Positions 8,075-19,814 of a stretch of 64,000 nt of DNA are shown in pieces (within the stretch, counting starts at the first letter, position 1; every line of letters starts with the position of its first letter). The stretch spans positions 4,300,503-4,364,502 of the forward strand of contig CP070695.1 of assembly GCA_020353515.1 (NCBI GenBank). Direction: 5' to 3'. Made by a program: the position numbers and the translations under genes. The DNA is from Candidatus Heimdallarchaeota archaeon (GTDB taxonomy: Archaea > Asgardarchaeota > Heimdallarchaeia > Hodarchaeales > Hodarchaeaceae). The notes beneath the pieces were generated by a model. It was not told where the DNA came from. It did not search any database and saw only the letters and a program-made list of their open reading frames with translations.

Positions 8075-9307
8075 TTATGGCATCCAATCGAGCAATCGGG
8101 GATAGCCTATATCAACAAAATCTTTTTTGATTTCACGGATTTTTTCAAAAATTGGGACCTTAAGTCCTTGAAGCTGGAGATCAGAAATAATTTTTTCGAG
8201 TTTAGGCTGAATATTTTTAATGCCAGCAATCAGTCTAGAATACCCACTTATGTATATTTCAGTTAATATTTCATTAGTATAAAGTGGTAATTCTCTATTT
8301 AATCCGCCTGATAATACCTTTAATCCATCTTCAATCCCCAAACTGTTTGGATCACGGCAGATTTCTAATAATTTCTCAAAACATTCTTTATAAGGATGAT
8401 AAATATTTCGTGCTATTACGCCACGAAGATACATCTGTTTTGTCTGCTCTATATTAAATAATGAGAAAGGAATAGTTGTCATGTATTCCGTCATTAAAAG
8501 GTCTTGAGAATCGACAATAGACCCCGAGAGATCTTGACTTCTTTCATAAATATCTAACGGTAAAACAATGCCAGTAATTTCACGAAATGCATCAATTATC
8601 TCGCCAGGTGTTAGCCGGAATTGAGTATAATAAACACCTACTCCTGTTAACATAATAAAAGCCTCTCCAAGCGTTTCTTCGATTCCTGTCACTGCAAAAT
8701 CAGGTAAAAAAATGACATTATCGTGAATAATAGCATGCACTGGCTGTTTAAGGTAGAATCCTTTGAAATCTTCCCTTTCTATCATTTTACGCCATGATGG
8801 AATGAATAAGATCTGTTTCAAACTACCAAGATCAGTTTCAATAGGTTCTTGAGCTTTTTCAGCTTCTTGGCGTACTTTCATTCTTTCTTCTCTATACTTC
8901 TTTGTCTCTAATTCCTCACGACGTTTAATTTTTTCTGATTTAGTTTTTACAGCTCTATCAAGCTCTGATAACCGTGTTTGGATCTTTGATTCAACCTCTT
9001 TTAAAAAATCCTCCCGTAATTGAGAATATCCATGGTCAGTAAGATATGTTTTAAATTCAAGCAGGGATACGCCTGTCTTTGGGTCATATGGTCCTAATTT
9101 TTCGAAATACTTTTGTATCACTTTCAGAATTTTCTTCTCTCGAGATATTTCCTGTAATTCCTTTCTCAAAGTTAATTTATCTTCTGAATCATTTGATTCA
9201 TACATGGTCAAATTCCCACTATTTTCTTCCAAACTTGACTTCTTTCTGTAATTAAGAGCTTTTCGAGTATGAAAAAATATTCTTTGTATTAATGCTTTGT
9301 CACTCAC
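8075..9307 (-). CDS. Hypothetical protein with a central coiled coil and a globular C-terminal domain
   Basis: 410-aa ORF with a charged helical segment (about aa 100-155). No recognised catalytic motif. Divergent from GTPase 9398. Confidence 0.7.
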   Translation of the reverse strand: MSDKALIQRIFFHTRKALNYRKKSSLEENSGNLTMYESNDSEDKLTLRKELQEISREKKILKVIQKYFEKLGPYDPKTGVSLLEFKTYLTDHGYSQLREDFLKEVESKIQTRLSELDRAVKTKSEKIKRREELETKKYREERMKVRQEAEKAQEPIETDLGSLKQILFIPSWRKMIEREDFKGFYLKQPVHAIIHDNVIFLPDFAVTGIEETLGEAFIMLTGVGVYYTQFRLTPGEIIDAFREITGIVLPLDIYERSQDLSGSIVDSQDLLMTEYMTTIPFSLFNIEQTKQMYLRGVIARNIYHPYKECFEKLLEICRDPNSLGIEDGLKVLSGGLNRELPLYTNEILTEIYISGYSRLIAGIKNIQPKLEKIISDLQLQGLKVPIFEKIREIKKDFVDIGYPRLLDWMP

Positions 9308-9397: not shown

Positions 9398-10690
9398 GTG
9401 GCAAATAAATTTAATGGTTTGGTCAGATTCAACCCCGATGGTATCAATTTGACAGCCATGGAAAACGCTGTGGTCAAATTAATATTAATTGGGGATGGAA
9501 TGTCTGGTAAAACCCAGATACTAATAACACTTGCTCAATTATTAATAGAATACCTTCAACAGATCTACTCATTATCCATCAATGAATCGGATTTCGATGA
9601 TCCAGCATTTCGTAGTTGGGCAGAAAGACGGGGTTTTTTTCTACGTTATGGCAACATCAAGTGGGATATTAGAACAATCAGTCTTGATACAGAAACGATA
9701 GGACTCGAGGATTTTGAATATGTCTTTCCCTACGTATGGAATGATACTACATACAAGATCAGACTTATAGGAAATGATGTGGGAGGTCAGAACATCTTCC
9801 ATCATTTTAGGGATGTCTTGGCGAAGATGGCTGGTCCTGATGATAATTTGATTGTTGTTTTCGATAAATCAAGGGAATTATCCTGCTATAACAGCATTGA
9901 ACATATAAAAAGAGTTCTTGGGATAATGACAGCAGAGAATGAATCCACCTTATCCAGGATAGCTTATTGTGGAAATAAGATTGATTTAGAGAAACACATT
10001 CGAGAAGAAGAATGGCGTGAAGGAGCACTCAAATCAATTATGGATAAAATTACTGATATTATGAACCATGGGAGAGGAGAGTATTCCTTTCCATCTTTAA
10101 TGGATATTCAAAAAGAAGAACAATGCGTGAAAGCTGATATCACGAACAATCAGATTACGTTCCCAGATTTAGAAGCGCTAATCTACAATGCTATCAGGGA
10201 GTTTGATAGCAAATATAAAACAGATTTAATGAGCGAGGTCAATACAAAAGCCCTTTGTAGAGAGATTTCAGCTCAGCTTGTCTATAACCAGAATGTCACT
10301 ATCCTTGAAGAAGGAAGCACCCAAGCAGAACAAGTGTGGGAAGATCTTCGTACAGTACTCTACCAAACTAGACCCCTAGCCGTTCAATACTCTGCTAGAG
10401 GTAGAATAAAAAAGGATGATGATTCAGCTCACCTTAGTCAAGTACGAGACAAATGGCGCAAATTTGGCTTGAATTTACCGATTACACCAGAAGATATCAA
10501 ATTTGCCCTTCATAGGACCGCCAACGCAGAGGAACTACTTAAGGAGATGGGAGATCGTTTTGACACCAATGCTTTATCTGGTGATGGTATCCTAAAAATG
10601 TTGGAATCTATAACCCAAGAAACCTTAATCAAACTCACACAACCGATTCAAAAGGAAAAACGAGTGAAACGAGAACTAAAAAGATTTTAA
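9398..10690 (+). CDS. Ras/Arf-superfamily GTPase with large insertions (paralog 1)
   Basis: G1 GDGMSGKT (aa 32-39), G2 TIG (T100), G3 DVGGQ (127-131), G4 GNKIDL (192-197), G5-like TNALSGDGI (390-398), polybasic tail. True start may be about 9449-9458. Confidence 0.8.
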   Translation: MANKFNGLVRFNPDGINLTAMENAVVKLILIGDGMSGKTQILITLAQLLIEYLQQIYSLSINESDFDDPAFRSWAERRGFFLRYGNIKWDIRTISLDTETIGLEDFEYVFPYVWNDTTYKIRLIGNDVGGQNIFHHFRDVLAKMAGPDDNLIVVFDKSRELSCYNSIEHIKRVLGIMTAENESTLSRIAYCGNKIDLEKHIREEEWREGALKSIMDKITDIMNHGRGEYSFPSLMDIQKEEQCVKADITNNQITFPDLEALIYNAIREFDSKYKTDLMSEVNTKALCREISAQLVYNQNVTILEEGSTQAEQVWEDLRTVLYQTRPLAVQYSARGRIKKDDDSAHLSQVRDKWRKFGLNLPITPEDIKFALHRTANAEELLKEMGDRFDTNALSGDGILKMLESITQETLIKLTQPIQKEKRVKRELKRF

Positions 10691-12984
10691 ATATCCTGCA
10701 TCGCACGTAATGGCCAAAACGATTCTAGTGTTGGGTTTTCCTTCCTGAATTCAGGGGGGATTAAATTTTCATAAGCCCTAGTCACCAATTTTTGATATTC
10801 TTCAGCATCGTATTGTTCGTTTCCTTTTAAAAGCTGTTCTGCCTTCACACGCTTCTTGTAGTCCTTTGCATGAACATCTAGGATGAGATAACGGATTTTC
10901 ATCCCAGGTTCAACATTTACCCCTAAAGCAGCTAGCTGTTTAGCTGCTATCGCTTGTCGAGAATTGTTGACATATTCATCAGGAGAACGTGAGGGACGAA
11001 TTGCTATCAATAAGTCTTCTAGAGGAACATTTCCTATTTCCAGTTCCGTGCTACATTCCTTCATGAATTTCTCAGCCCGTTGGCTAGCTACTTGAAATTG
11101 TTCTCTTGATCTAGCTTTGGCTAAGATGTTTAACATATTCATTTGGAGTTTCTTGATAAAAGGAGGACTACTTGATTGGCGGATTTCGATACCACGAATC
11201 CGGAACGTTCCATCTGTTTTCAGGCCATAATACCTGTTTAATACCCCTATCCCAGGTTCATGACGACGGGGCAAGAAGATGATCCAGTGGTAATCGCAGG
11301 CATGTTCAACTGGTAGTTTGACAATATCCGCTACTTCTTGACGTAGCTTACGTACCTTGTCGAGCGGGACTGGTTCCTCCTCGGGATCTTTCACCCAAAC
11401 TGAATCTACTATGCCAGCTACAACCTCCAGCCCGTAACGCGAGGCGATTTGCTGAGTGAGAGTTAATCCATGCCTACTGTACGCTGAAATCGCTTCATGT
11501 GATTCAATACGTCCAAAGCGTGCGTTTCGATAACCTGTATATCCAAAACAAGTCACTAAAAGCCATTTAAGCACTTTCTGTCGTCGATCATAATCTGGAT
11601 GAACGTTTCGCTTTGCTTTATAATATTGACGTCGTCGTAGGATGTTTTTAAGTGAAAGACTGATGATACCAAGTCTTTTCGTGCAAACATGGTAATTGGT
11701 AAGAGGTACAAGCTGCCTTTTGTCGTTCGTACAACACGTACAGTTAACAGTTTCAGGAGAAACATTCCTATGAACCATAATATTCGGGTACATTGACAGA
11801 AAATCGAGTTCAACCACATTTGTGTGGAATCCAACCCAGGGGGAAAACACAAGCCCTCCCACATCGGTTTCCATGGTCCAAGCAGGACGGAATGACTCTG
11901 GATCCGCCTTCCTCGCGGGAATTAGTATGTCTCGGTAATAAGCGGTTCGCATCTGTACGGCGGACAAAGTAGTCCCTATGGTACCACGAGCGATTCTTTG
12001 CGGGTCACTACATCCTAATCGCACTAATTCATGAATACCTGCTATATTTCCGTCTTTCCACATAAAACTATTTCCCACGTCATAGTGGTGACGACCCCCA
12101 TCAAAGTAAACGCCGTGCTGTGAGTAAAATATTCTTCCATAAGACATGTAGCTGTGACCCCGACTCCTTTCATCCTTCTGTCGCACATAGCTTCTCAAGG
12201 GACGGAAGCCGCGACCAATACGCAGATGCCCCTCCCCAACCCGTGTAGAACGCTCTGCGATAATCGGAACGAAAGTATCCCCTCCTCGTGTAAATAGGAG
12301 ATCAGGATTAACTTGTTGGACATATCGAATGCTGTTACGTATGATTTCTGCTTCTGTCTGTTCTTCGAAGACAATTGGTTCTTCTTGGTCAATTACTGAT
12401 CTCCGTATCAAGATCTTTGTTATTTTTCCCCGAGAGAGGCTTGAGTCTTCGAAGAAGGGTTGGAACCAGAGCACACGAAATGGTACAGGTTGATAATCCA
12501 TTTGAGTATAGGACTCGAGCAGCTGCCAGTTCTTCAACTGACCGTTGCTGATATCGATCTTTGCATAAGCGTAAGGGAAAAGTTCAGTCTGAAAGCAAAA
12601 CTGTTGCCACAAGCTCAGATCTGCATTGTGGAGATACTCGCCCCAGTACTTTCGTAAGTCTTCATAGGTAGCTCGGATTCGACGAGGGTTGACTCGAATA
12701 CAAAACACAGATGACGGTTTTTGGTTGTGGATAGAAAGGTACTTCGACCTTTTTTCTATTCTTTCAATGTGGGGATGACTCAACAATTGTTTTTCGATGT
12801 AAGGATCAGTCTTCGCGAGGAAAAATTCGGCTGTGAGGGGATAAAAGGCTTGAATTGCCTTCTTCTTAGTGATCCAATGCGTAGTGACCCCCCAATCGGC
12901 AGCTTCGACTTCATGGAGCCATGCGCGGATCCGAGACATGTTAACAGTTCCAATAAGTTGTTTAAGTCTCCCCCTTGTGATCAC
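10687..12984 (-). CDS. polB2: Family B DNA polymerase, PolB2 group, exonuclease domain degenerate
   Basis: Motif A DFLSMYPNIM, motif B KWLLVTCFGYTGY with NARFGRIE, motif C variant GIVDS in place of YGDTDS, NRYYG, RGIEIR. No DxE Exo I motif. Context matches the known PolB2 operon. Confidence 0.85.
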   Translation of the reverse strand: MITRGRLKQLIGTVNMSRIRAWLHEVEAADWGVTTHWITKKKAIQAFYPLTAEFFLAKTDPYIEKQLLSHPHIERIEKRSKYLSIHNQKPSSVFCIRVNPRRIRATYEDLRKYWGEYLHNADLSLWQQFCFQTELFPYAYAKIDISNGQLKNWQLLESYTQMDYQPVPFRVLWFQPFFEDSSLSRGKITKILIRRSVIDQEEPIVFEEQTEAEIIRNSIRYVQQVNPDLLFTRGGDTFVPIIAERSTRVGEGHLRIGRGFRPLRSYVRQKDERSRGHSYMSYGRIFYSQHGVYFDGGRHHYDVGNSFMWKDGNIAGIHELVRLGCSDPQRIARGTIGTTLSAVQMRTAYYRDILIPARKADPESFRPAWTMETDVGGLVFSPWVGFHTNVVELDFLSMYPNIMVHRNVSPETVNCTCCTNDKRQLVPLTNYHVCTKRLGIISLSLKNILRRRQYYKAKRNVHPDYDRRQKVLKWLLVTCFGYTGYRNARFGRIESHEAISAYSRHGLTLTQQIASRYGLEVVAGIVDSVWVKDPEEEPVPLDKVRKLRQEVADIVKLPVEHACDYHWIIFLPRRHEPGIGVLNRYYGLKTDGTFRIRGIEIRQSSSPPFIKKLQMNMLNILAKARSREQFQVASQRAEKFMKECSTELEIGNVPLEDLLIAIRPSRSPDEYVNNSRQAIAAKQLAALGVNVEPGMKIRYLILDVHAKDYKKRVKAEQLLKGNEQYDAEEYQKLVTRAYENLIPPEFRKENPTLESFWPLRAMQDI

Positions 12985-13258
12985 TGCCTGTATTCTGCAG
13001 TCTCTTCTTTAACCTGGCTAGTTCGGCTTTCAATTTTTGAATTTCGGAGTGTTGTCCTATTAACATTGACATCACGACATTATCAAAGATTATGGGGCGT
13101 GTATTTGCAGACGCAGCATCTGCTAGTTGGAAGGCATATAGCCAAAGATCTGTGAAACTGGTTCGATATGGTTCACGTAAACGGTTTGCGTAATGTACCA
13201 GCCAGAGAGCACGCTCTTTTTCAAGCATTCTACGGTAAGATGGTAAAGTTCTGCCCAT
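12962..13258 (-). CDS. Small PolB2-associated protein (arCOG07300-like)
   Basis: Starts MGRTLPSYR, helical with a C-terminal coiled coil. Lies between the RadA-like gene and PolB2, overlapping the PolB2 start. Confidence 0.75.
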   Translation of the reverse strand: MGRTLPSYRRMLEKERALWLVHYANRLREPYRTSFTDLWLYAFQLADAASANTRPIIFDNVVMSMLIGQHSEIQKLKAELARLKKRLQNTGSDHKGET

Positions 13259-13263
13259 AAGAA

Positions 13264-14073
13264 TCACCAGAATTGAGTTAAGGGTACTTGATGCTGTTCT
13301 TCCCTTTCTGCTGTGTGCGAGAGTTTTATCTGAACTACTGGCCCACCTTTTTGGACAGTAAAGAGAAGTGTGTAGTTCTGTCGATTACTGTCAGGCGTTA
13401 CTGCCACTCGAATGACATCAGTAGCCGAATGCGAAAGAAACGTACCTCCAAGCGCTTTGTGCTTTGAGTGAGGCGCATTTTCTGCAGTTGTTATTCCTAC
13501 CAAGTCATATTGCAAACTAAGGCTCTTCAACTTCCCCACTGCCTGTGTCAGCTCGAGAATGGAGGATGTTGACGTTAACTTGTCGTATTCTAGATACTGG
13601 AGCGCTTCTTTTGATAGATAAAGGGACGAAATCTGAGGTACTAAAACAATACGAATACGGGGGTTCGTATCAATCAGTCGAGGAAGTTTCGTGTAAAGAA
13701 TTTCGGTCATTTGATGATAATTAAACGCACGTGATAGTTGAATCCTATCGAGTATTCCCAGTGGATCCAAGCCATGCTTTCTTGCTTCAAGTGAGATCTC
13801 GAAGTATGGAAATAGATTCGCTCCATCAACAAAGGCAAGATCAACACTAGGGTTGCTTATCAGCAGCGATACCGTGAGCTGAGTAATGAAAGCACGTAGG
13901 ATTGAGTTTGGCAAATCTCCCTGAATCAAAGCCAAACTGCCTGGATATAGCACGAATGCGTCATCTAGGTGCGCCATACCAAGTCGAAGGCATCGTTGCA
14001 GCTGCTGATGTCGTACATCAGCTGAAACAAAATTGTCGGGAAGGTCTTCATGATTCCGATAATCTTGGATCAT
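13264..14073 (-). CDS. Inactivated RadA/Rad51-like protein of the PolB2 cassette (ImuA-analogous)
   Basis: RecA-fold signatures FVDGANLF, LDRIQLSRAFNYHQM and GGTFLSHSATDVIRV. Walker A (IQGDLPNSILRAF) and Walker B (IVLVPQISSLY) are degenerate. C-terminal QVPLTQFW PIP box. Confidence 0.8.
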   Translation of the reverse strand: MIQDYRNHEDLPDNFVSADVRHQQLQRCLRLGMAHLDDAFVLYPGSLALIQGDLPNSILRAFITQLTVSLLISNPSVDLAFVDGANLFPYFEISLEARKHGLDPLGILDRIQLSRAFNYHQMTEILYTKLPRLIDTNPRIRIVLVPQISSLYLSKEALQYLEYDKLTSTSSILELTQAVGKLKSLSLQYDLVGITTAENAPHSKHKALGGTFLSHSATDVIRVAVTPDSNRQNYTLLFTVQKGGPVVQIKLSHTAEREEQHQVPLTQFW

Positions 14074-14519: not shown

Positions 14520-17500
14520 TTGAATAATGACAAAGCTAGACTGTTAAAGGCAATTTGTGATCACCTCAAGCTTGATGACATACCACAGAGCATGGTTTCC
14601 CGTAGATTAACAGTTTTCAAAGCATTTGAAGAAAATGAAGATAAGTTTCATGGGGAAGAATTTCGGCAATGGTTTTGGAATATTTATGAGGAAGGGCATC
14701 CAGAACTCACTGAAGGGAAAATTACCCCCTCATTGATATTTTCATTCATTAACAGTAATTATGATCTAGTAGAAGAAGCATTAAAGCTTGATTCACTAGA
14801 TGAAGCTCTGCAAACTCACGAAGAGATGGCATCAGAGATCTCCGAGGAGTTTAAAGCTATAATTTTGAGAAATAAAACTCAACGAATTCTTGCGGAAGAT
14901 TCCCTGTTTATGAAAAAGCTCCTTGGGAAAGCTAAATCCGAAATATTCCCCTATCCAGAATTTGAAAAAAGGATCCTCAATCATTTTGAAAAAATGCTAG
15001 ATATCTCAGGAAGAGAACTGCTCGAAGAGGCCTCAAAAGCTTATATATGGAATGTTTACAAGGAAGATGAGACAAAGTGTTATAGGCTAATTTTTGAGGA
15101 ATTCATCAAGCATAAGGAGACATATGAGAAGTTAGGGGTGAATTTCAGTTACCCTGAGATGTCTCTTGGAGGGGGACGAAATGTTTCTCAGATTATGGAG
15201 GCGATTCATCGATCTTTTACGCAAAATGTTGGTGGAATTCTAGGATTAAGAAGGATCATTAGCATTGCAAACAGAATAGCGGAGGTGGGCTTTACCGAAG
15301 AAGAAATTATCAACTTCTTTACTGCTTATCTCAGTGGTGGACTAGACTCAACCTTATCTAATCCTCCTGATGGTCATTCATACTTCATTGAAGTAATAAA
15401 AACCTATGATTATGATTTTACAACAAATCTTGACAATTTAGCACCAAAGACGGAATTCAATCCAAAAGAATTGGAAACAACTTTGGATAATTTCTTGCGG
15501 ATTTTAATTCGTATAAAGATAGCTGAATGGTCAAAAAACGTACCTATGGGTGAAGAAATAACGATTATTGACTTAATCACAGAAATTCAGAAAGATGTCT
15601 TAAATCAAATTGAGGATGAAGAAAAACTTCTTCCATTTTTTGAGATGTTTCAAAAAACAGACAAAAATATCCTTGAAACAACTATCACTCATTTTTCAAA
15701 AGAATTAGCTTATTCATATATTCTCAGATTGAGAAGAGGAGGAGTAGAATCCACATTACTTAATTCCTTCAAGATAATGAACCTCAGTGGGGCATCAAAG
15801 ACTATTGGTAATCAAATCTTTGATATAAAAAAGTTTTATGAAACTTTGTATCCTGATTCGTGGCAAATAAAGTTTTATGATGAGTTTATACTTGATATCG
15901 CGAGTAAAGGACTTTCAACATCCTCCAAGCAAACAGTACGAGAACGTTTGAATCTCCTTGTCCAAGAAAGTCCAGGATATTCTGGATCTTCTGCTTATAA
16001 ATTAAAGAAGATAGAACTAGATGTTATTTTTGAAAACTTGAAAATTAATGTTCCTTTAGTACTTCCAGATTTTGGAACAGCAGAGGAAGCTCAAAAATAC
16101 ATTAGTCGAACTTTTTCCATTATTCGATCTGTATTAAGTAAAGTCTGGATAAAAAAAATACTTAGAACAGGATTTGAATTATATATTGAGTCACCTGTAA
16201 AACGTGTTTGGCAAAATGAAATGGAAGATCTGTCTCGGGAACTGGTTAGCTATTATCAGAATGTTGTAACTGTTTTAGGGAGAAAGTCTTCAGAAATTAA
16301 TGAACTTGTTGTTGAAGGACTTAGGGATTCATTAAGTGGGTTATATTTCGTTGATGAAAATGTTAGAGATTCAGAAGTCTTTAATATCTTTGTGAAATTA
16401 CCAGAGAATCCAATTCTTACCGATCGGGATGATGTGGAAAATTATCTGGATTTTGTTTTTGATGAAGGCAAACTCATAATCAACAAAGTATTAAGTAGGG
16501 AAGTTAAGGAGGAAATAGAAAGAAAAACATTTGACCAAGAGATTGAGGAACGAATTTCTCTTGAAAATACTGTAATAGATTGGTTTGTTCGAGCAAGTCA
16601 ATATTATAATTCAATAATTACTGAACTAATTAGTTTAGAAAAGACCACAGATCCCAACGATACGTTATTGAAAACCATTTATGGTGGAACTATATTTCTT
16701 GTAGAAGAATCAATGAAATCTCTCCTTCTAAATCAGAATGAGAAAATTAATAAAGCAAGTTTCCTTAAAATCTTCTTTTTAAAACAAGTTGAAGCACTTA
16801 GAAGCTCTTTTTCTCAATTAAAATTTGATTATAACACTCAAGCAATTATAAATTACGTATTAGCCCAAATTAGATTATGGGATAGGGTGTTTAGACTCCG
16901 AGGAATCCTTTCAGATCTCGAAGCTGATAATAGAATGCGACGAGCGTTAGGGCCAAGTGTTTCAGATAGTCATGAAGATTCTAGAATTGCTAGTTCTCTT
17001 GTTGAGAACCCTGGTTTAAGAGGCCTTATTGCTAGAGAATTTATGGCAGACTGGATAAAAAACTGGGCGAATTCAGTTATAGAGCTTACTGAATCTTATC
17101 TTGAAGAAGTTCTTCCAAATGTTGAGGAAACAGAGAAGGAAAGTTTTGAACAAGAAGTTCTTGGACTGTTATTTAATGGTACAGGGAGAGATGATATTAG
17201 AAATTTTATGGTACCACTAATTGTAGGAAATCTTAAGAAACCCCTAGGTTATGAGACAAGTCCCCTACCACCAGAATTCTCGAAATATAGATACGAGGTA
17301 TTTGCTGAAGCTGTTAAATGCGATTCTCAACTAAGTATATATTTTCTATTTTCAAATTGGGTAGAGAAAGAGAGGAAATACTTTAAGAAACAAGTAGTCA
17401 GTGATTTGGATTTCGTTATATATCAAGAAAGTCAAATTGTCAGTTGTCGACGGTTATTAGGAGCAACACAGGAATTTACTCTGAGTGACGTTGTAAAAAA

Positions 17501-18428
17501 GGCTACTGGCTTAAGCTTATCAGGACTTACCCTCCAAACTGTTGTATTTCAATTAGGTGAGAAGGAAATCTATTCAGCAGCTTCTTATGTTGAGAATCCT
17601 TTTGAAGGTTCAATCGTCACTGGTTTGACTTTGGAACTGATTTCAAAAGAAAATATTCCAATGGGACTGATTCATCCGTTAGCAAAAAATGCTTCAGAAG
17701 CAATTGCAGGCTTAATAGAAAGAAATCAACTGAATGCTTCCGAACCAGACATTCTCTTCAATGCTGTGCTTCAACAGTTGCTGAATGAGGCAAGATTAGT
17801 TTTACTAAAGGATGCTGGGACATTAAGTGAAAGAATAGCAACAGATGAAATGGCACCACAAATAGAGCGTGATGTCTCCCGATGCAATCTAAAGGTTACA
17901 ACTGCATATAAGATGTACTTTAAAGACGATTTACAAGATCAAAGTTACCGCTTGGAGGAAGTTGAATTTTATGGTGAGAAGCTTGACAATTTTGGCTTAT
18001 TTGTACAGCTCATAATACCATTTCTTGAACCAAGTCAAATCATAAGAAAGCGTCTGAAAAAAGATCACCAGCTCTTAGATTATTTAGAAGTCCCCAAGGG
18101 GGAAGAAATCCGAGTTTTTCCTTCTCTTATCATATTTGATGACAACGATAGATATAAAGTTGCTTTTGGAACATACTCATCTCAGGAAAATGCATTATAT
18201 GTTCTTGTTGCAGAAGAAAATGATGAATCGAAGATGGGGTTAAGAACAATCCAATATCTTCTAAAAACAAGAGACTTTGAAGAGCTATCAGAAGATTTAG
18301 GATTATTGCCTCTCCCCAGACTTAATCAGAGTCTACCCCTAAACAGGATTAATGTAATGAAAGAGAAGAGGGGGGAGTATGTAATTGATTTCGAGCTGAT
18401 TAAAAATATTTCATTAGGAGCGATCTAG
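14520..18428 (+). CDS. Large (1302 aa) mostly helical hypothetical protein with predicted longin-like C-terminal domains
   Basis: Long acidic helical ORF whose stop abuts the ATG of GTPase paralog 2. The C-terminal ~340 aa show two beta-beta-alpha-beta-beta-beta-alpha patterns (fold is an inference). Confidence 0.7.
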   Translation: MNNDKARLLKAICDHLKLDDIPQSMVSRRLTVFKAFEENEDKFHGEEFRQWFWNIYEEGHPELTEGKITPSLIFSFINSNYDLVEEALKLDSLDEALQTHEEMASEISEEFKAIILRNKTQRILAEDSLFMKKLLGKAKSEIFPYPEFEKRILNHFEKMLDISGRELLEEASKAYIWNVYKEDETKCYRLIFEEFIKHKETYEKLGVNFSYPEMSLGGGRNVSQIMEAIHRSFTQNVGGILGLRRIISIANRIAEVGFTEEEIINFFTAYLSGGLDSTLSNPPDGHSYFIEVIKTYDYDFTTNLDNLAPKTEFNPKELETTLDNFLRILIRIKIAEWSKNVPMGEEITIIDLITEIQKDVLNQIEDEEKLLPFFEMFQKTDKNILETTITHFSKELAYSYILRLRRGGVESTLLNSFKIMNLSGASKTIGNQIFDIKKFYETLYPDSWQIKFYDEFILDIASKGLSTSSKQTVRERLNLLVQESPGYSGSSAYKLKKIELDVIFENLKINVPLVLPDFGTAEEAQKYISRTFSIIRSVLSKVWIKKILRTGFELYIESPVKRVWQNEMEDLSRELVSYYQNVVTVLGRKSSEINELVVEGLRDSLSGLYFVDENVRDSEVFNIFVKLPENPILTDRDDVENYLDFVFDEGKLIINKVLSREVKEEIERKTFDQEIEERISLENTVIDWFVRASQYYNSIITELISLEKTTDPNDTLLKTIYGGTIFLVEESMKSLLLNQNEKINKASFLKIFFLKQVEALRSSFSQLKFDYNTQAIINYVLAQIRLWDRVFRLRGILSDLEADNRMRRALGPSVSDSHEDSRIASSLVENPGLRGLIAREFMADWIKNWANSVIELTESYLEEVLPNVEETEKESFEQEVLGLLFNGTGRDDIRNFMVPLIVGNLKKPLGYETSPLPPEFSKYRYEVFAEAVKCDSQLSIYFLFSNWVEKERKYFKKQVVSDLDFVIYQESQIVSCRRLLGATQEFTLSDVVKKATGLSLSGLTLQTVVFQLGEKEIYSAASYVENPFEGSIVTGLTLELISKENIPMGLIHPLAKNASEAIAGLIERNQLNASEPDILFNAVLQQLLNEARLVLLKDAGTLSERIATDEMAPQIERDVSRCNLKVTTAYKMYFKDDLQDQSYRLEEVEFYGEKLDNFGLFVQLIIPFLEPSQIIRKRLKKDHQLLDYLEVPKGEEIRVFPSLIIFDDNDRYKVAFGTYSSQENALYVLVAEENDESKMGLRTIQYLLKTRDFEELSEDLGLLPLPRLNQSLPLNRINVMKEKRGEYVIDFELIKNISLGAI

Positions 18429-19814
18429 ATGAATAACCTTTCTTTAACAGGATTTCAACCAAAGAATATTGACTTGACTGAAATGGTTGATGTTGATGTA
18501 AAGAAGGTTGTGATAATCGGCGATGGAATGTCAGGAAAGACTCAAACACTAATAACGTTTGGTAAAAAGATTCTAGTTTATCTTCAGAGAATATATTCTG
18601 CTCGTTCAATTTTAGAAAGGAAATCTTCCAAAGATACTGGATTAGAAGTCGCTCTGGAAACTTTCGGAGATCAATACACTGTGGATCCAGCATTTCAATC
18701 TTGGGCTGAACGTCATGGCTTTCTTATACGATATGGTAACAATAAATGGAATATAGTGTCAGTATCATTAGATACTGAAACAATAGGTTTTGAAGATTTT
18801 CAATTCATTTTCCCCTACTTTTGGGAGAATAAAACATACAGAATCAACTTATTTGGAAGTGATGTAGGCGGACAGAATATCTTTGATCACTTCAGGACTG
18901 TTTTAGGAAAAATCGCAGGAGCTAAGGATATTTTACTTGTTGTTTTTGATAAATCTAGGGCTTTGTCTTGTTGGAATAGCATCGAGCAAGTCCAAAGGGT
19001 TGTGGGGGATAAAATTTCGGAACGAAAATTAGGTCAATCAAATATTCCACGAATCATATACGTGGGTAATAAAATTGACCTAGAAGAACACATCAACAAA
19101 CAAGAATGGCAAAATGGCGTCTCAAGTTCAATAATGAGGAAGATCACTCAAATTTCAGATTATAGGAAAGGAACATATCAATTACCTTCATTAGTTGGGA
19201 GGAAAGGATTGGAGAGAACCTTTCATTTCAAAATAGACAATGGATTTCTTCATTTCCCTGATTTTGAGGCATTAGTTTACAATGCAATTAGAGAGGCTGA
19301 TCCAAACTATAGAACTCATAAAATCATGACAGATGTTAATGCAAAGGCAATTGCTAGGGAAATTTCTGCTCAATTTGTGTTTCAGCGAAAAATTGAGGAG
19401 AAAGAAACAGATAAAGGAACAGAAGATGCAAAATCTGTTATAACTATTTTAGAAGACTTCGGAAAGTTATTATTTCAACGTAGACCTTTAGCAATGCAGT
19501 ATTCAGGAGGAATCGAACAAATTTACGAGACTACAAGTGAAAGTAGTTCATTTGGACGAGTTCGCGTAAAATGGATCGATTATGATGTAAACTTCTATCA
19601 TCTTAAGAGAGAAAATATAAAATTTGCTCTTGAAAGCGCAGCCAATGCAAAAAATCTTTTGACTACTGATATGGGGGAAATTTTTAATACAAATGCATTA
19701 ATAGGAACTGGAATCATGGCCTTATGGGATTCGATTATTCAAGAGAAGCTGAAAGCAGCAACAGCTTTAAAAATAGATAAAAAATCTAAAAAAAGAAAGA
19801 TTAGAAAGTTCTAA
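18429..19814 (+). CDS. Ras/Arf-superfamily GTPase with large insertions (paralog 2)
   Basis: GDGMSGKT, SLDTETIGFEDF, DVGGQ, GNKIDL, TNALIGTGI, tail KKSKKRKIRKF. Collinear with 9398..10690. Confidence 0.8.
   Translation: MNNLSLTGFQPKNIDLTEMVDVDVKKVVIIGDGMSGKTQTLITFGKKILVYLQRIYSARSILERKSSKDTGLEVALETFGDQYTVDPAFQSWAERHGFLIRYGNNKWNIVSVSLDTETIGFEDFQFIFPYFWENKTYRINLFGSDVGGQNIFDHFRTVLGKIAGAKDILLVVFDKSRALSCWNSIEQVQRVVGDKISERKLGQSNIPRIIYVGNKIDLEEHINKQEWQNGVSSSIMRKITQISDYRKGTYQLPSLVGRKGLERTFHFKIDNGFLHFPDFEALVYNAIREADPNYRTHKIMTDVNAKAIAREISAQFVFQRKIEEKETDKGTEDAKSVITILEDFGKLLFQRRPLAMQYSGGIEQIYETTSESSSFGRVRVKWIDYDVNFYHLKRENIKFALESAANAKNLLTTDMGEIFNTNALIGTGIMALWDSIIQEKLKAATALKIDKKSKKRKIRKF

Follow-up and report, generated by a model that had tools for sequence, protein, structure and literature searches.

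The window analysed here is a stretch of 64,000 nucleotides (positions 4,300,503 to 4,364,502 of contig CP070695.1, Candidatus Heimdallarchaeota archaeon) from a single 4.94-Mb contig of genome G000. It holds a two-gene unit (14520-19814), made up of a very long orphan gene and a gene for an unusually large GTPase (paralog 2), together with a dispersed extra copy of the GTPase gene (paralog 1), and these two paralogs were the only copies of the family in the genome. The paralog 1 reading frame opens with a GTG start codon and has AAGGAG 9 nt upstream of it. The features of the locus are collected in Table 1; residue numbers refer to paralog 1 throughout.

Table 1. Coordinates in the window of the GTPase genes, of the motifs and inserts of paralog 1, and of the adjoining genes.
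Feature	Position	Strand	Basis or remark
410-aa gene, divergent from paralog 1	8075..9307	-	No family match
Insert-bearing Ras-superfamily GTPase, paralog 1, 430 aa	9398..10690	+	ORF, Pfam, AlphaFold2 model
G1 P-loop GDGMSGKT, residues 32-39, Lys38	9491..9514	+	M35-T39 invariant, G32-G34 at least 90% conserved (46 members)
Insert 1, ~residues 51-96, ~45 aa	9548..9685	+	Extension of α1, helix 68-77, strand 81-84 (AlphaFold2 model)
Switch I / G2 DTETIG, Thr100	9686..9703	+	E99, T100, G102 invariant (46 members)
G3 DVGGQ, residues 127-131, catalytic-type Gln131	9776..9790	+	D127, G129, G130, Q131 invariant (46 members)
G4 NKID, residues 193-196	9974..9985	+	N193, K194, D196 invariant (46 members)
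Insert 2, ~residues 225-384, ~160 aa	10070..10549	+	β-hairpin and 6-7 helices (AlphaFold2 models)
G5 TNAL, residues 390-393	10565..10576	+	T390 invariant; N391, A392 at least 90% conserved (46 members)
Polybasic C-terminal tail ending in Phe	10652..10687	+	Last 16 residues: 5-9 Lys/Arg in 46/46 members
1302-aa orphan partner	14520..18428	+	Ends in TAG immediately before the paralog 2 ATG (junction sequence)
Paralog 2, 461 aa, same architecture	18429..19814	+	48-50% identity to paralog 1 over the full length

GTPase motifs and spacing

Paralog 1 was matched by the Pfam Ras model (PF00071) over residues 100-205 with a marginal score of 23.4 bits against a gathering cut-off of 21.6, and the same model matched 45 of 46 family members. 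All five G motifs were present in canonical order, their key residues being either invariant in the 46-member alignment or shared by at least 90% of its sequences, and the ORF translation and a spacing parse of 37 members put Lys38, Thr100, DVGGQ, NKID (Asn193) and TNAL (Thr390) exactly where the initial annotation, made from the sequence alone, had read them. The P-loop aligned with the GDGxVGKT of Ras-like GTPases from the same genome and G2 with the T-x-G of Ras-like GTPases, and once the inserts were removed TNAL-SGDGI aligned with the TSAK-TGDGV of the same-genome Ras-like proteins, motif for motif.

In paralog 1, 62 residues lie between K38 and T100 and 197 between N193 and T390. Across the 37 parsed members the G1-G2 spacing ranged from 57 to 104 residues (median 78), G2-G3 from 23 to 29, G3-G4 from 61 to 70 and G4-G5 from 189 to 208; relative to Ras, the G1-G2 interval was longer by 38 to 85 residues and the G2-G3 interval by only 1 to 7. 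Both inserts were kept in paralog 2 and in ~65 relatives, and the five insert motifs quoted for paralog 1 in the initial annotation all recurred in paralog 2. Its view that two conserved insertions split a small-GTPase core was borne out by the order of the five motifs and by the conservation of both inserts across the family.

Core fold and placement in the Ras superfamily

An AlphaFold2 model of paralog 1, built on the family alignment, had a pLDDT of 80.8 and a pTM of 0.83. The N-terminal part of the model comprised β1 (22-32), a long α1 (38-61), a helix (68-77), a strand (81-84), β2 (102-114) and β3 (117-129), the middle part α2, β4, α3, β5 (187-193) and helices 195-202 and 204-224, and the C-terminal part a hairpin (226-249), several helices between residues 255 and 382, β6 (387-389) and α5 (398-414). 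Rab30 and Rab8 superposed on model residues 21-416 (VIA; Z 12.8, rmsd 2.7 Å, 163 of ~171 residues), so the whole Ras fold is present and the C-terminal β6, G5 and α5 are part of it. The six-strand, five-helix G-domain fold was recovered from β1 to α5 and again in a wide structural search, where Rho and Rab chains reached Z 12.1-12.3 and EF-G-2 matched at Z 9.8 through its G domain only. TNAL, whose position had been named beforehand as a point on which the annotation turned, follows β6 and precedes α5, and because Rab and Rho superpose over the whole core it sits at G5.

In sequence comparisons the core was nearest to Ras-like GTPases. The only matches of the family profile to PDB sequences were Rab28 and RhoA, and an HMM of the insert-stripped core retrieved Ras-like GTPases of the genome (best E 3e-9) and none of its eight Arf-type genes. 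In a purely archaeal tree that combined 17 stripped family cores with 75 G domains of the genome, the family was monophyletic (support 100); it belonged neither to the Arf clade nor to the large Ras-like clade, and its stem measured 1.76 substitutions per site. Kinship with Arf, at which DVGGQ hints, was rejected on the preference of the stripped core for Ras-like GTPases, on the position of the family outside the Arf clade and on the Pfam Arf score of paralog 1 (18 bits), which fell below both its cut-off of 22.3 and the Ras score. Approximately 85 to 100 ORFs of this genome match an iterated Ras-superfamily profile, and PF00071 by itself matches in 64 places.

The two inserts and the C-terminal tail

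Insert 1 lies between helix α1 and the G2 Thr100 and varies in length across the family; F80, Y84, G85 and W89 were invariant in the 46-member alignment. Asp97 (at least 90% conserved in the 46 members) occupies the position, three residues before the G2 threonine, at which G-alpha proteins carry their cis-arginine. The Pfam G-alpha model (PF00503) gave no match to paralog 1 at E <= 1 and matched one of the 46 members below its cut-off (E 0.008). G-alpha-i1 superposed on the model at Z 10.3 (rmsd 4.2) over 176 of 310 residues, corresponding to the Ras-like core alone, and ranked below Rho, Rab, Ras and Arf.

Insert 2, in the G4-G5 region, lies between helix α4 and strand β6. Its invariant residues in the 46-member alignment (D257, E259, Y263, N282, R288, E289, the R325-P-L-A-x-Q330 loop and R350) hold in distant members too. 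At least 90% conservation was found at 28 of its 160 positions and at 9 of the 46 positions of insert 1 in the same alignment, which indicates that the inserts are under constraint. Residues 218-386, folded alone on 17 orthologous segments, gave a hairpin and six to seven helices (pLDDT 75.6, pTM 0.75). With this medium-confidence model, Foldseek returned nothing from the PDB at E <= 0.001, and in an exhaustive VIA comparison with 48,161 chains the highest Z was 5.1, over 63 residues, so that no chain reached 8; the G-alpha helical domain, RGS, roadblock and longin folds were absent from the match lists. The initial annotation had turned in part on the inserts having no counterpart among known domains, and for insert 2 this stood, at the resolution of the model, in both structural searches. 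That insert 2 is a stand-alone or shuffled domain was also considered and dropped, since a profile of the insert by itself retrieved nothing but family members from the 83 genomes of the class.

The C-terminal residue was phenylalanine in 45 of the 46 members. The pattern [KR][KR]x[ILF][KR][KR]F was seen in the tails of both paralogs (10652-10687 and 19776-19811) and in 45 of 46 relatives.

Distribution and loss

A HMMER scan of 1.8 billion representative proteins matched the family in only 20 clusters, and no eukaryotic homologue carrying the inserts was found in that scan. Among GTDB species genomes the family was present in 10 of 400 Asgard archaea, equal to 10 of the 83 genomes and two of the seven families of the class Heimdallarchaeia, all within one order: eight of the 22 species of the window's genus and both species of a second family. 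The MAGs from which relatives came (contigs WAPZ01000453.1 and JAJRXH010000099.1 are among those carrying a member) are named Hodarchaeales, Hodarchaeota or 'Promethearchaeota', and two of them, Dive96_bin3.136 and S146_22, are placed in Hodarchaeales in the accessible part of a recent preprint (bioRxiv 10.1101/2024.02.28.582541). Copy number ranged from 1 to 4 per genome, with at least two paralogs in six of the ten genomes and a single copy in three, one of which is 91% complete.

The module was absent from 14 of the 22 species of the genus, some of them 93-96% complete, so whatever it does is dispensable. In G069 and G070, two species of the same genus, a ~700-aa protein that corresponds to residues 3-672 of the partner only lies in the same slot beside a DUF72-like gene (G069:C49:27802-29838 and G070:C5:62727-64763), and neither genome has an insert-bearing GTPase. 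In G074 a stretch directly after the partner gene (G074:C35:99994-100374) corresponds to no more than the C-terminal ~125 residues of the GTPase and contains three in-frame stops; judged from its sequence, it looks like a decayed copy of the partner-linked GTPase, and an intact copy is located on another contig. In other species lacking the module, the slot between the RadA-like and DUF72-like genes was empty or ~3 kb in size. Together with the linkage of partner and GTPase in distant relatives, these truncated and empty slots indicate that the two-gene module is ancestral to the order and was lost repeatedly.

The partner gene and its neighbourhood

The 1302-aa partner had no match in Pfam, NCBIfam, PADLOC, PDB-profile or ESM Atlas searches. 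A homologue was located directly upstream of a family member in seven genomes, among them relatives with a partner identity of only 22% and a GTPase identity of 27-29%, and the loci with this arrangement include L004, L007, L011, L015 and L016. A partner was found in eight of the ten genomes that carry the GTPase, the two without it being 74% and 80% complete, and among the class genomes scanned the whole partner occurred in none outside the GTPase carriers.

Paralog 1 is not adjacent to the partner; it is an extra copy on the far side of a PolB cassette. The 410-aa gene that diverges from it was found beside paralog-1 orthologues in L003, L004 and L006 only, a weak association among near relatives, and no relation to the 1302-aa partner was found when it was considered as a homologue. 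There was no conserved third gene in distant loci, where the neighbours encoded HisRS, a phosphoesterase, an SPFH protein and POR.

The cassette that separates the two GTPase genes (PolB, a small ORF and a RadA-like gene; window 10001-14000) has a G+C content of 42-44.5% compared to ~34% around it and is syntenic in relatives. PolB (10687-12984, minus strand), a family-B DNA polymerase, is uninterrupted here and in L004. In the relatives L003, L005, L006 and L011 a gap of ~1.4-1.6 kb divides the match at approximately residue 478-480, the pattern expected from an intein.

A class-wide family of ~250-aa GTPases

The genome also encodes, outside the window, a 256-aa GTPase (locus L059; G000:C1:492171-492938, minus strand) with expansions between G1 and G2 and between G2 and G3 only. 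Its ~250-aa family was present in 64 of the 83 class genomes and in six of the seven families, with named matches from Kariarchaeaceae and B3_Heim. Compared by hhalign, this family and the split GTPase family were related at 94% probability. A tree constrained to join the two was 4.9 lnL better than the free tree (p-AU 0.68), with both on long branches, and the two families may be sisters. Homology of their G1-G2 inserts was rejected: only the last 10 residues aligned (E 0.029), and all that the inserts had in common was [ST][VI]SL[DN]T before G2.

Discussion

We favour, as the reading most probably correct, that the split GTPase is a functional GTP switch of the Ras superfamily belonging to a small family restricted to Hodarchaeales, ancestrally in an operon with an orphan protein of ~1300 aa. 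Its canonical G domain is intact and carries three lineage-specific additions, namely insert 1, insert 2 and the polybasic, Phe-ending tail, and the ancestral unit would be a two-gene operon in which the orphan protein precedes the GTPase. Such a protein may cycle between GTP and GDP using Gln131 and pass the movements of switch I on to insert 1, and insert 2, the tail or both could dock the giant partner, a membrane or an anionic surface. The partner would be a regulator or an effector scaffold of the switch, regulating the GTPase or regulated by it, and the two most likely work in a complex.

The strongest competitor, although an unlikely one, is that the split GTPase is simply a member of Rup3 and hence already described. 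As far as the accessible text of the preprint goes, Rup3 was named by Vargova et al. for a group of GTPases found only in Heimdallarchaeia, set apart from other groups and without eukaryotic relatives, which has 'unusual expansions' in the G1-G2 and G2-G3 intervals and occurs 'across the class' (bioRxiv 10.1101/2024.02.28.582541). The split family has a large G1-G2 and a small G2-G3 expansion, one of its source genomes (S146_22) is in the dataset of that preprint, a sister or inclusive relation with the class-wide family was not rejected by the AU test, and hhalign gave its 94% probability. Against membership, a family found in 10 of 83 genomes and two of seven families is not 'across the class', whereas a different GTPase of ~250 aa has exactly the two expansions and nothing else; the accessible text of bioRxiv 10.1101/2024.02.28.582541 makes no mention of a G4-G5 insert of ~170 aa; the bodies of the G1-G2 inserts show no detectable homology; and B3_Heim, an older annotated MAG, is among the matches of the class-wide family and absent among those of the split family. 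Since it occurs throughout the class and is expanded at G1-G2 and G2-G3 alone, the ~250-aa family fits the published description of Rup3, as far as accessible, better than the split family does; the name probably belongs to it, and probably not to the split GTPase, for which we dropped this identity. If Rup3 is the ~250-aa family, the GTPase-partner module is without a name or a description in the literature searched.

A bolder form of the switch model, to which we give rather little weight, would make the module a two-component GTPase machine of Hodarchaeales in which the spliced domain of novel fold provides catalysis or regulation from within the protein (the arginine of RPLAxQ might, for instance, work in cis), an independent invention of the self-contained timer of G-alpha, and in which the ~1300-aa partner would be an exchange factor or effector.

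It is improbable that the pair is an accessory module, for example in conflict or defence, in which the GTPase senses or triggers the giant protein, and not part of core cell biology. The patchy occurrence within the genus, the variable copy number, the operon with a giant orphan protein and the decayed copies in G069, G070 and G074 all fit such a role; however, PADLOC gave no meaningful match (its sole hit, to GajA at E 0.0025, was a weak one through the P-loop), the adjoining genes have housekeeping roles and change from lineage to lineage, the locus is syntenic with empty or smaller slots that look like loss and not insertion, and the module is old, with versions only 22-29% identical in two families of the order. 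More doubtful still is a nucleotide-dependent dimer in the style of the Rag heterodimer or of dynamin and GBP, in which paralogs would pair through insert 2: the frequency of genomes with several paralogs and a large helical add-on that in outline recalls the large GTPases (Atlastin appeared weakly in Foldseek) are set against the three single-copy genomes, the catalytic Gln, which is Ras-like, and the lack of any match of insert 2 to a Rag roadblock, GBP or dynamin element. Least credible of all is kinship with heterotrimeric G-alpha, whose archaeal precursor or relative the protein would be, with insert 1 as a rudimentary helical domain. In favour are the insertion site, the DVGGQ motif and the single sub-threshold Pfam match; against it stand an insert 1 modelled as short and without a helical bundle, the Asp in place of the cis-Arg, the core-only superposition, profile matches confined to Rab28 and RhoA, a stripped core nearest to Ras-like and not Arf-like GTPases, and inserts seen in no eukaryotic homologue.

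Among the archaea known at present, the Hodarchaeales stand closest to eukaryotes, and inferences on the origin of eukaryotic cell organisation draw on the expanded GTPase repertoire of this order. The lineage-restricted switch favoured here, probably undescribed as such, is a case in which the Ras fold was elaborated in Hodarchaeales in a manner that eukaryotes did not inherit, gaining an inserted domain without a match among solved structures and a dedicated giant partner. Its significance is moderate, because the searches turned up no link to eukaryotes and species of the genus can do without the module.

Comparison with known systems

Elements inserted between G4 and G5 are known elsewhere, in the form of the Rho insert (~13 aa) and the G' subdomain of EF-G. 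The split GTPase resembles both in that an extra element after G4 leaves the G fold unbroken, and differs from them in that insert 2 on its own matched neither.

The initial annotation had seen in the split core an echo of G-alpha architecture. The two have in common only the DVGGQ motif and the site of an insertion, from α1 to switch I, and a real echo is not supported: where G-alpha has a six-helix domain of ~120 aa, insert 1 adds a single helix and a single strand to an extended α1; there is no cis-Arg; and the largest insert lies elsewhere, from α4 to β6. By insert anatomy, Pfam and structural ranking, the Hodarchaeales GTPase is not a relative or forerunner of G-alpha. Convergence, which the initial annotation had allowed for, may be claimed at most, and for the insertion site only.

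With Rup3, as it is described in the accessible text, the split family has in common a long separate branch of the Ras superfamily found only in Heimdallarchaeia and a G1-G2 expansion. Unlike the Rup3 candidate, it is confined to one order and combines a small G2-G3 expansion with the G4-G5 domain of ~160 aa, the polybasic Phe-ending tail and the ~1300-aa partner.

Compared to Rab, Rho and Ras, finally, the Hodarchaeales GTPase is more than twice as long, has two internal inserts, lacks a lipidation motif and scores only just over the cut-off of Pfam Ras. These proteins are nevertheless its best structural matches (Z 12.1-12.8 over 163-175 aligned residues), and it has in common with them the complete fold, all G motifs, a GDG-type P-loop, the TIG of G2 and NKxD.
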